A stretch of DNA of 41,901 nucleotides. It comes from a virus. Its lineage: Duplodnaviria; Heunggongvirae; Uroviricota; Caudoviricetes. Where the stretch lies: the IMG/VR virus record IMGVR_UViG_2541047898_000007; one strand, 5' to 3'. A program made the translations under genes and the position numbers. Numbering within the stretch: position 1 is the stretch's first letter; each line of letters begins with the position of its first letter. Shown one piece after another: positions 14,737-26,811 of this stretch. The notes below the pieces were generated by a model. The model ran no database searches. It saw nothing but the letters and a program-made list of their open reading frames with translations, and was not told the DNA's origin.

Positions 14737-14873
14737 CATTTGAATCCTGTTTTTCCGATCACCTCCGCGTTCGCTGGCAGCGGCTTCGCTTATACCACTT
14801 TCCCGGCTCTGTGCTAACGGACTACCGGATACTGAAGAATTACGTGAAAACTTATGCTGGAGAAGCGCTATGA
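14733..14873 (+). CDS. YlcG-like small protein (46 aa), absent from the ORF track
   Basis: Manual translation [46 protein letters not shown]; ATGA overlap with the rusA stop and with the Q start. Confidence 0.45.
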
Positions 14874-15652
14874 ACCTTGAAAACACAGTGAAATACCACT
14901 TCGCTAAATCCACACTGATTAGCGATTCTCCGCGCGCTACCGCCTCCGATTCACTGACCGGTACCGACATAATGGCTGCCATGGGCATGACGCAGGAACG
15001 CGCCGCAATGGGTTACAGCGCCTTCCTCGGCAAGATGGGCATAAGCAATAACGACCGGGATCGGGCGATCGGTCTGCTGGCTGAGTACGCGATGACAAAA
15101 TGCGACAAGGTTGCCGCACTGCGTAAGCTCGGTGCCGCGGTTAAACCTCAGGTGATGCACCAGTTGGCCACCTTCGCTTTTGAGGACTATTCCCGCAGCG
15201 CTGCCAGCGTGAAGCAGTGCGATTGTTGTGACGGTCAGGGCTTCATTGAGGCTGACGTGTTTACCAATAAATTCCGTAAGCCAGAAGGGAAAATGACCGT
15301 GTCCGGGATGGTGAAGGTCAAAGAATCCATCAAAGTGCTATGCAAAAAGTGTAATGGCTCTGGTGTGGTTAGTGCTTCTTGCAGTGATTGCCATGGGCGC
15401 GGCAAGGCAGTGAACCAGGCTCTTACTGAGAAACAGGGCGTTCCTGTTCTGGCTGACTGTAAGCGCTGCGGAGGGCGTGGGTATGAACGACTTCCGTCGA
15501 CTGAAGCCTATGCTGCTGTATGCCAGATTACTGACGCCATTAGCCTGGACACCTGGAAAAAGTCTGTTAAGCCATTCTACGACCTGCTGATCACGAAATT
15601 TGATATCGAAGAGTCCTGGGCCGAAAAACAGCTTAAGCAGATAACGCGGTAA
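14870..15652 (+). CDS. Late-gene antitermination protein Q-like
   Basis: 260 aa; paired CxxC motifs (CKKCNGSG...CSDCHGRG...CKRCGGRG); position after rusA and before the lysis cassette. Confidence 0.55.
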   Translation: MNLENTVKYHFAKSTLISDSPRATASDSLTGTDIMAAMGMTQERAAMGYSAFLGKMGISNNDRDRAIGLLAEYAMTKCDKVAALRKLGAAVKPQVMHQLATFAFEDYSRSAASVKQCDCCDGQGFIEADVFTNKFRKPEGKMTVSGMVKVKESIKVLCKKCNGSGVVSASCSDCHGRGKAVNQALTEKQGVPVLADCKRCGGRGYERLPSTEAYAAVCQITDAISLDTWKKSVKPFYDLLITKFDIEESWAEKQLKQITR

Positions 15653-15855
15653 CGCCTATAGCGATAGCCTATGATTTTGTCTTGGGCTATTTACTTTTCC
15701 CGAATCTGTGTTAATTTTGTCCCAACGATGGGTTAATGCCTTCGTTTCAAGCCCTGCGGATAACACCGTGGGGTTTTTGCGTTTCTGGAGACAGCAATAC
15801 CAAGGTTCGAGACATTCAGGTAAAATTGATGCATTACAGGATGTGAGGTTGGGGA

Positions 15856-16645: not shown

Positions 16646-16676
16646 TCGCCCCGGCACCCGCTGGGGCTTTTTTATT
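16646..16676 (+). terminator. Rho-independent terminator upstream of the lysis cassette (possibly tR'-like)
   Basis: cgccccggcacccgctggggc hairpin followed by tttttt. Confidence 0.5.
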
Positions 16677-25438: not shown

Positions 25439-26380
25439 ATGATTACTTTTGATCAGGCAACCGTAGATAGCTCCGGTGCCTTTCTCATCGGGGAGCTGGA
25501 GCGACTCGACCAGACGCTGAACCTGCCTCTGGTGGGGTACACCTGGACCCGAGATATTCAACTGCGTGAAGACGTGTCTATCGCAGATGACATTTCCAGC
25601 TGGACGAATACCAGCTTCGCCGCTGCGGGTACTGGTGCAAATCCGAATGGTAAAAACTGGGTAGGCAAAGACTCCACCGCTATTGCTGGCGTGAACGTGG
25701 ATATCAGCAAAGACGGCAATCCACTGAACCTCTGGGGTATGGAACTGGGCTGGACCGTTGTAGAGCTGGCAGCTGCTCAGCAGGTAGGCCGCCCGATTGA
25801 TACCCAGAAGTACGACGGGATGCAGCTCAAATGGCAGATGGACAACGACGAGCAGGTTTACATCGGTGATGACGCACTCGGCCTGAAAGGTCTGGCAAAC
25901 CTCGTCGGTGTGACGCTGAACAACGCGCCGAAGACCTGGGCGAACTCAACCAACGACGAGATCCTCGATAGCGTGAACAGCATTCTGTCTAATGCCTGGG
26001 CAGCATCCGGTTATTCCATCGTGCCTTCTGATCTGCGCATTCCGCCAGAGCAGTATTCACTGCTGGCGAGCCGTAAGGTTTCCGAAGCGGGTAACCAGTC
26101 ACTGCTGACCTATCTGGCTGTGAACACTATCGCTTTCCACCAGAACGGCGTTCCGCTTGAAATCAAAGCGGTCAAATGGCTGAAAGGGCGTGGGGTTGGC
26201 GGTAAAGACCGTATGATCGCCTACACCAACGACAAGAAATACGTGCGCTATCCGCTGGTGCCGTTGCAGAGCGTTCCTGTCCAGTATCGCGGTCTGTATC
26301 AGATTGCGACCTACTACGGCAAGCTCGGTGCGGTTGAGCCAGTGTACAAAGAAACCCTGTCCTACGTGGACGGTATCTGA
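25439..26380 (+). CDS. Major capsid protein (DUF2184-like)
   Basis: 313 aa; position; strong stem-loop just downstream. Confidence 0.65.
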   Translation: MITFDQATVDSSGAFLIGELERLDQTLNLPLVGYTWTRDIQLREDVSIADDISSWTNTSFAAAGTGANPNGKNWVGKDSTAIAGVNVDISKDGNPLNLWGMELGWTVVELAAAQQVGRPIDTQKYDGMQLKWQMDNDEQVYIGDDALGLKGLANLVGVTLNNAPKTWANSTNDEILDSVNSILSNAWAASGYSIVPSDLRIPPEQYSLLASRKVSEAGNQSLLTYLAVNTIAFHQNGVPLEIKAVKWLKGRGVGGKDRMIAYTNDKKYVRYPLVPLQSVPVQYRGLYQIATYYGKLGAVEPVYKETLSYVDGI

Positions 26381-26421
26381 TAACCAGAACGGCCCCGAAA
26401 GGGGCCAGAAGGGAACTGAAA

Positions 26422-26811
26422 ATGGCGAAAGAAAAGCTGGTTACCATCCATGTTCACACCCCGTTTACGCTGACGCTCGGCGATCAGTCAAAAAGGGAGT
26501 TTGGCCGGGGACGGCATAACGTACCGGAAGAGGTCGCGTCGCACTGGTTCACCCAGGCGCACTCCGAGCTTTCCGAAAGCGTGATTAGCGACACCGATGA
26601 TCTGCAACCCATTATCGACAGCCTGCAAGCTCAGATTGCCGACAAAGATAAGCAGATTATCGATAAAGATCAGTTGATTGCCGATCTGCGAGAAGCGCTG
26701 CTCAAGCTGCAAGAGCAGAACGACAGCCTGCAAGCGCAGATTGCTGCCGCCCAGACTGGCGGTAATGGGGCGAAAGATGCCAAAGAATCAAAGCCTGCCA
26801 ACAGTAAGTGA
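26422..26811 (+). CDS. Hypothetical coiled-coil protein
   Basis: 129 aa; heptad-like [44 protein letters not shown]. Confidence 0.4.

Follow-up and report, generated by a model that had tools for sequence, protein, structure and literature searches.

Here we report that a temperate phage carries, directly behind its major capsid protein gene, a short GC-rich hairpin which, judged by its recurrence and its compensated variation among relatives, is not a product of chance and is maintained by selection. The hairpin was studied in the window, by which we mean the whole 41,901-nt stretch of DNA that was analysed (IMG/VR record IMGVR_UViG_2541047898_000007). By its sequence and by that of its relatives, it is a standard intrinsic terminator hairpin minus the terminating part, the U-tract. 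We consider it most likely to be a U-less hairpin of the protective type, terminator in form and of an ordinary, already known kind. As to its role, the reading that we favour, at a little under an even chance, is that of an exonuclease barrier, by which the mRNA of the head shell would be stabilised relative to that of the low-copy neck genes.

Genome setting and fold of the post-capsid hairpin

The window represents a complete temperate phage with an integrase at 1-1194 and a lambdoid-style regulatory region comprising NinB, RusA and a Q antiterminator. After Q, the + strand genes follow in the order lysis, terminase, portal, DUF2213 scaffold/protease, cement and capsid, and beyond the capsid gene come connector/neck, tail sheath, baseplate and fibres (Table 1). 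The capsid region is 96% identical in DNA to that of Citrobacter phage Omnitron and 90% identical to that of Salmonella phage SEN34, where the product is annotated as 'major head protein'. The cistron downstream of the capsid gene is the first of the low-copy neck-side genes; 3' of it lie genes for a virion structural protein, Neck1 and a head-tail adaptor, with the tail sheath gene at 28653. Homologues of its product share a conserved N-terminal part of ~55 aa (MxKxxV/IHTPF...; phrog_6497), the C-terminal coiled coil is highly variable, with lengths of 73-129 aa among annotated relatives, and matches to scaffold-like proteins were weak only. Elsewhere in the window, just 5' of the terminase genes, the ORF at 18831-19451 matches both phrog_513, which PHROGs labels 'transposase', and Pfam PF18894, a putative phage metallopeptidase (E 2.2e-43), and the 'transposase' label is probably misleading.

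Read directly, the junction behind the capsid gene runs ...GGTATC TGA TAA CCAGAAC GGCCCC GAAA GGGGCC AGAAGGGAACTGAAA ATG.... The hairpin therefore occupies 26391-26406, within the interval 26388-26409 of the initial annotation, and consists of a perfect 6-bp all-GC stem capped by GAAA, just as had been claimed there for the region after the capsid gene. The missing U-tract is equally borne out by the sequence, since the 10 nt 3' of the stem, AGAAGGGAAC, hold no T and the first T is found at 26417. Only the distance of 8 nt given from the stop codon to the stem needs correction, because the stem begins 10 nt past TGA (26378-26380) and 7 nt past a second in-frame stop, TAA (26381-26383). These tandem stops are consistent with a back-up stop for a very highly translated capsid gene; TGA TAA CCAGAAC is kept across the close clade of the window, and in Yersinia relatives the pair is TAA TAA.

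The 41-nt intergenic region folds with -16.0 kcal/mol, corresponding to z = -3.45 against dinucleotide shuffles, of which 1 in 200 was equally stable, whereas the z-score is merely -1.49 when the hairpin is folded in an 80-nt context. When the 41.9-kb window was scanned for perfect stems with a minimum of 6 bp and 5 GC pairs, 15 matches were returned, ~13 of them distinct. Because such hairpins are not rare in the window, it is position and conservation, and not the sequence alone, that exclude chance. The evidence from this single sequence is suggestive, not conclusive.

Table 1. Features of the window, with hairpins found at the equivalent site in annotated relatives (SD, Shine-Dalgarno-like motif)
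Feature	Position	Strand	Sequence, evidence or context
Q-like antiterminator gene	14870-15652	+	phrog_127, E 5.7e-104; PF03589 Antitermination protein Q, E 2.2e-45
Canonical intrinsic terminator	15749-15776	+	between Q gene and holin gene
Canonical intrinsic terminator	16648-16667	+	GCCCCGGC-ACCC-GCTGGGGC then TTTTTTATTT; between Q gene and holin gene, ~120 nt 5' of holin ATG
Major capsid protein gene, 313 aa	25439-26380	+	Pfam PF09950 Major_capside, E 6.7e-82
Tandem in-frame stops TGA TAA ending the capsid gene	26378-26383	+	direct read
Hairpin 5' arm	26391-26396	+	GGCCCC; direct read, folding, perfect-stem scan
Hairpin loop (GNRA tetraloop)	26397-26400	+	GAAA; direct read
Hairpin 3' arm	26401-26406	+	GGGGCC; direct read, folding, perfect-stem scan
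U-less spacer	26407-26421	+	no T in 26407-26416; holds SD-like AAGGGA
SD-like motif	26409-26414	+	AAGGGA; 7 nt 5' of next start codon, ~2-3 nt past stem
Downstream cistron, 129 aa, coiled-coil tail	26422-26811	+	phrog_2619, E 2.4e-47, function unknown
Terminator of the 96-aa ORF	35489-35471	-	own terminator of that ORF
96-aa ORF	35495-35785	-	matched by several PHROGs without assigned function; lies within the + strand tail/baseplate operon
Canonical terminator	35973-35992	+	8-bp stem, UUCG loop, T-run; within tail/baseplate operon, just 5' of baseplate gene at 36008
Hairpin of E. coli vB_EcoM-606R2			ATGGCCCC-CTGGC-GGGGCCAT
Hairpin of Hafnia phage yong1			GGCCCCC-ATAT-GGGGGCC
Hairpin of Klebsiella phage Mulock			GCGGCCC-GAAA-GGGCCGC
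Hairpin of Klebsiella phage GZ7			loop GGAA
Hairpin of Klebsiella phage ST16-OXA48phi5.2			one G.U pair

Recurrence of the hairpin among relatives

For a scan at species level, one genome per species with a capsid alignment was taken, which gave 80 loci with 56-98% capsid identity. A perfect hairpin (at least 6 bp, at least 5 GC pairs) was found to start 0-40 nt past the capsid stop in 51 of the 80, where ~1.5 would be expected from a frequency of 0.019 per 41-nt window in the rest of the same loci, and the site carries 43 distinct hairpin versions among these relatives. In all annotated relatives examined, a GC hairpin lies at the equivalent place with a differing sequence (Table 1). The compensated stem changes among relatives, together with this excess over expectation, confirm that the hairpin picked out initially is real.

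Among the distinct tetraloop sequences, all six inner positions are paired in 42 of 42, with 2-4 pair types at each position, including C-G/G-C and A-T swaps. These counts were made on loop-anchored ungapped segments and are hence fitted to the structure, so that an unfitted alignment served as the cross-check: in 84-nt segments aligned with MAFFT and folded with RNAalifold, the hairpin core is the only consensus structure, and 3 of its 4 pairs show two-sided changes. A MAFFT alignment of the 22-nt hairpin segments misregistered stems of the GGCGGG type and was not used for pair counts. At closer range, 80 near-identical IMG/VR loci were compared, a set with capsid proteins 97-100% identical that holds little covariation information; 79 of them share an unchanged hairpin, and several positions vary in the 15-nt spacer that follows. 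The sole variant (IMGVR_UViG_3300029577_000112) reads GGCCCC GAAA AGGGCC, by which the loop-closing pair is lost and a 5-bp stem with a 6-nt loop is left.

The gap between the capsid gene and the next gene is bimodal in the 80 loci, being either at most 13 nt and without a hairpin, or 35-75 nt. A GC hairpin is present in every long gap of Enterobacterales, and the sole long gap without one, 76 nt in Yersinia phage YP3, involves a mis-assigned start. Short gaps without a hairpin are found in Burkholderiales, Xanthomonadales, Acinetobacter and a Xenorhabdus group. In these hairpin-less relatives, the capsid gene and the next gene abut or overlap and the SD lies at the stop codon, an arrangement of the coupled kind. 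A second hairpin peak, ~600 nt past the capsid stop, was dismissed, as it comprises dissimilar palindromes located in coding sequence and no shared element.

Some of these observations could also be accommodated if the hairpin had no current function, being either what is left of a terminator after loss of the T-run or a side effect of mosaic recombination at the junction of a conserved capsid gene and a variable gene. BLAST matches to Klebsiella phages stop at window position 26403 (query 965), inside the hairpin, the downstream gene varies in length and in C-terminal sequence among relatives, and relatives outside Enterobacterales lack the hairpin. A relic, however, should decay, whereas the stems stay perfect through compensatory changes across clades, down to ~75% capsid identity; furthermore, GNRA loops are strongly enriched, and in near-identical genomes the hairpin is more conserved than the spacer flanking it. 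We therefore regard the lack of a current function as very unlikely.

Strand and molecule on which the hairpin acts

A palindrome of this kind may act on either strand or as DNA, and the loops and the imperfect pairs discriminate between these cases. When 34 tetraloops were read on the + strand, 23 were GNRA and 2 were UNCG, as against 3 and 0 when they were read on the - strand, and non-Watson-Crick pairs flanked by pairs were G.U in 9 cases and A.C in 3. The loop types and the G.U bias, along with a - strand tail that is not T-rich in the relatives, imply that the element acts as sense-strand RNA of the capsid mRNA. On these comparative counts the hairpin is established as one that works as + strand RNA.

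The consensus scan does call a terminator-like element on the - strand, TGGCCCCTTTCGGGGCCG followed by TTCTGGTTAT, and the - strand fold is nearly as stable (-15.3 kcal/mol). No - strand gene ends at the site, however, and relatives show no T-rich tail on the - strand, their upstream flanks being for example CAGCCAC, CCTTCACAC and CCCAGCAATC; the GNRA/UNCG loop counts and the G.U pairs also favour the + strand over the - strand. As for a palindromic DNA site bound by a protein, both stem and loop are more variable than sequence-specific binding would allow. A - strand terminator directed against antisense transcription, or a protein-binding DNA site, is thus scarcely credible. A boxB-like protein-binding hairpin was also rejected, since loop and stem vary freely among relatives (GAAA, GCAA, ATAT, CTGGC, TCCG and others).

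Relation to intrinsic terminators

Like an intrinsic terminator, the element is a GC stem-loop on the sense strand past a gene. Intrinsic termination also needs a U-rich tract, through which the hybrid is weakened and the polymerase pauses. No such tract follows the stem, and the terminator scan gives no + strand call here, while the canonical terminators in the window have the tails TTTTTTATTT and TTTTATGG. Among distinct sequences from the relatives, the number of T in the 8 nt past the stem is bimodal, with 0-2 in 32 and 4-7 in 21. The T-rich forms are represented by AAGCCCC-TCCG-GGGGCTT followed by TTTTAATGG in Morganella and by AGGCGGG-GAAA-CCCGCCT followed by TTTTTTATGG in Citrobacter/Enterobacter, and by sequence they are textbook, canonical terminators standing at the capsid site of some relatives.

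On the capsid tree, every member of the window clade is U-less, as are those of the Klebsiella, Yersinia and Pantoea clades, and many compensated stem variants occur among them, which argues that the U-less state is old and maintained and does not reflect recent decay. The exact 16-mer of the window hairpin, GGCCCCGAAAGGGGCC, occurs in at least 120 IMG/VR contigs, and in 85 of 102 unrelated contexts (83%) it is followed by at least 4 T within 8 nt.

A terminator was also seen on the other side of the capsid gene. Seven hairpin-less loci, from Dyella, Rhodanobacteraceae, Achromobacter, Solilutibacter and Frateuria, have a canonical terminator ~100 nt 5' of the capsid start, for example AAACCGCC-TTCG-GGCGGTTT followed by TTTTGTGGG. 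This pre-capsid terminator lies ~1050 nt before the capsid stop and thus on the opposite side of the gene from the hairpin.

Transcription through the late operon

The whole tail module lies 3' of the hairpin on the same strand, and no convincing + strand promoter was found directly 3' of the hairpin, the scan giving weak and distant ones at 34984 and 35504. The Q gene, combined with a canonical terminator inside the essential tail operon (35973-35992), implies that the late polymerase reads through terminators. RNA polymerase loaded with Q is termination-deficient, and Q blocks the formation of terminator hairpins in a narrowed RNA exit channel (PMC9388147, PMC6606751). Of the two terminators between Q and holin, that at 16648-16667 is a candidate for the tR'-type terminator of a Q-controlled late promoter, which Q would override; a consensus scan located neither a late promoter nor a Q-binding site near these holin terminators. 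The 96-aa ORF on the - strand, with its own terminator, looks like an antisense moron.

This setting bears on whether the hairpin is itself a weak or partial terminator, or a hairpin-dependent pause, that lowers transcription past the capsid gene, either by acting on polymerase that Q has not modified or in spite of Q. Other clades do have the hairpin with 5-7 T at the exact position, the identical 16-mer mostly belongs to a terminator when it occurs in other phages, and a post-capsid terminator is known in phages, as in the case of T7 Tphi after gene 10 (PMC5592923). Yet there is no T in the 10 nt past the stem, where a U-rich tract is required, and the window clade has retained the U-less form over a long divergence. 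Moreover, the Q gene is present with implied read-through of the terminators at 16648 and 35973, and all tail genes lie 3' of the hairpin with no convincing + strand promoter directly past it. Termination or pausing of this kind is accordingly improbable in our estimate.

The initial annotation had offered a choice between a stabilising element and a partial terminator, and had set aside a full terminator. What stands of this is a selected hairpin on the sense strand that is no full terminator, lacking the U-tract and having the tail genes downstream, and that is placed at the boundary of shell and neck genes; the partial-terminator half of the proposal is disfavoured by the T-less 10 nt, the Q antiterminator and the canonical terminator within the tail operon.

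Other candidate elements

A recoding stimulator of the T7 gene 10A/10B type was considered and rejected, as the frame relations across relatives are 23/18/16 and the frame that would link the two genes is mostly closed. As for the window itself, its downstream gene reads in the -1 frame, which is open from 26338; no canonical slippery heptamer was seen in 26338-26380, and the tandem stops TGA-TAA are present. A REP/BIME repeat was rejected as well, because the 16-mer is single-copy in the window even with 3 mismatches; on inspection, this minimal 16-nt hairpin presumably has no REP consensus. No Rfam family was matched anywhere in the window at gathering thresholds.

Discussion

The hairpin marks a boundary, with high-copy shell genes 5' and low-copy neck/connector genes 3', which is where a step-down in expression should be useful. 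Considering that Q-modified polymerase should ignore terminators, the hairpin would act after transcription. In the scheme that we favour, the late operon would be copied by Q-modified, terminator-resistant polymerase, which the U-less hairpin would not release, and the long late transcript would be cut at some point downstream. PNPase and RNase II, degrading from 3' to 5', would then stall at the hairpin and leave a longer-lived mRNA ending just past the capsid gene. As a consequence, the shell proteins (scaffold/protease, cement and capsid) would be made from a more abundant mRNA than the 12-copy neck proteins.

The paradigm for such an arrangement is malE-malF (Dar and Sorek 2018, PMC5927463). 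Of 34 E. coli operon pairs with selective stabilisation of the upstream gene, 26 have RNA 3' ends just past a stable U-less hairpin, and these hairpins are conserved in Salmonella and Enterobacter (PMC5927463). The phage element resembles this type in being a stable U-less stem-loop at the 3' end of the more-needed cistron inside a polycistronic operon, here at the shell/neck boundary, and in having a structure conserved in homologous operons. It differs in being a single minimal 6-bp hairpin that is no REP/BIME repeat, and in belonging to a phage late operon. Furthermore, most of the protective hairpins of E. coli lie inside the downstream coding sequence (PMC5927463), whereas the phage hairpin is intergenic and abuts the next SD.

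Several observations nevertheless count against a barrier. Six GC pairs are near the lower limit for an exonuclease block; as stated where PMC2811032 cites Spickler and Mackie, stem-loops with five GC pairs were ineffective as a PNPase barrier in vitro. The high-copy tail sheath/tube genes lie ~2 kb further 3', so that a scheme in which everything downstream is less abundant is not obviously optimal. The relatives in Burkholderiales, Xanthomonadales, Acinetobacter and Xenorhabdus get by with no hairpin at all. Finally, the tight spacing of hairpin and SD is not needed for 3' protection, and could reflect a translational role or mere genome compaction.

A translational role would be that of an attenuator or insulator, in which the hairpin would occlude the standby site and block re-initiation or scanning by capsid ribosomes, the downstream protein being translated weakly and independently. 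The distance from the end of the stem to the ATG is indeed tightly constrained: it is 13-16 nt in all U-less loci, and of the 57 distinct loci, 55 fall within 10-20 nt. The hairpin also separates a very highly expressed cistron from a low-copy one. In addition, the hairpin-less relatives have coupled genes, so that the hairpin alters the geometry of coupling. We still consider such a role unlikely. Direct coupling of the homologous gene pair is tolerated in the hairpin-less relatives, and the SD of the next gene is unpaired in the fold predicted in both 41-nt and 80-nt contexts. The extreme stability, the near-pure GC stems and the GNRA/UNCG loops typify terminators or exonuclease barriers and exceed what a standby block needs, and the near spacing may be nothing but compaction.

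Compared with other known systems, the hairpin shares with intrinsic terminators its GC stem, its GNRA tetraloop and its place just past a stop codon, and is unlike them in the absence of the U-tract and in an operon that is Q-antiterminated. Post-capsid terminators have been predicted in JG068 and LIMEzero (PMC3765740), in addition to T7 Tphi, which acts on T7 RNAP and not on host RNAP. Hairpins of Rho-dependent transcripts, which are U-less and shield these transcripts from PNPase and RNase II (PMC6061677), have a terminator-like geometry and energy of stem and loop with little U past the stem, as is the case here. A protective role against PNPase/RNase II would be common to both. Those hairpins, however, lie at transcript ends with rut sites 3', whereas a translated gene begins 15 nt past the phage hairpin, and Rho termination is unlikely here because the polymerase is expected to be Q-modified.

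With the boxB of lambda nut, the hairpin has in common a short GC stem, a GAAA-type loop and a phage of lambdoid regulation. The pentaloop of boxB is read sequence-specifically by N, boxA precedes it, and it is located near early promoters. By contrast, the loop of the phage hairpin varies freely among relatives, and the site is midway along the late structural operon, 10.7 kb 3' of the Q gene. In the literature, we found general precedents only and no described stem-loop after the major capsid gene for this phage group.

It is mildly interesting that one conserved site can be either U-rich or U-less in a late operon that is likely under Q antitermination. As a tentative and still rather doubtful generalisation, phages may keep U-tract-stripped terminator hairpins in Q-antiterminated late operons as post-transcriptional devices that set the ratio of shell to neck, through an exonuclease barrier and/or standby occlusion, the U-tract, kept or lost at one conserved site, then serving as a tunable switch in evolution between control of transcription and control after it. 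With the natural series of hairpins that have or lack a U-tract, transcriptional dosage effects in phage late operons could be told apart from post-transcriptional ones, and synthetic operons could gain compact parts that act as mRNA stabilisers or as insulators. In practical terms the value is modest, and no new question is opened.

For annotation, a post-capsid hairpin without a T-run should not be named a terminator. The hairpin also shows where the next gene truly begins, as is illustrated by SEN34 (NC_028699, locus 2451-2852), in which the annotated start falls inside the hairpin. The ATG annotated for gene 8 is made there by a C-to-T change within the 5' arm (A-TGGCCCC...), and one has to go 33 nt further 3', to locus position 2484, to reach the conserved SD and ATG. 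Judged by these conserved signals, the start deposited for SEN34 gene 8 probably lies 11 codons too far 5'.
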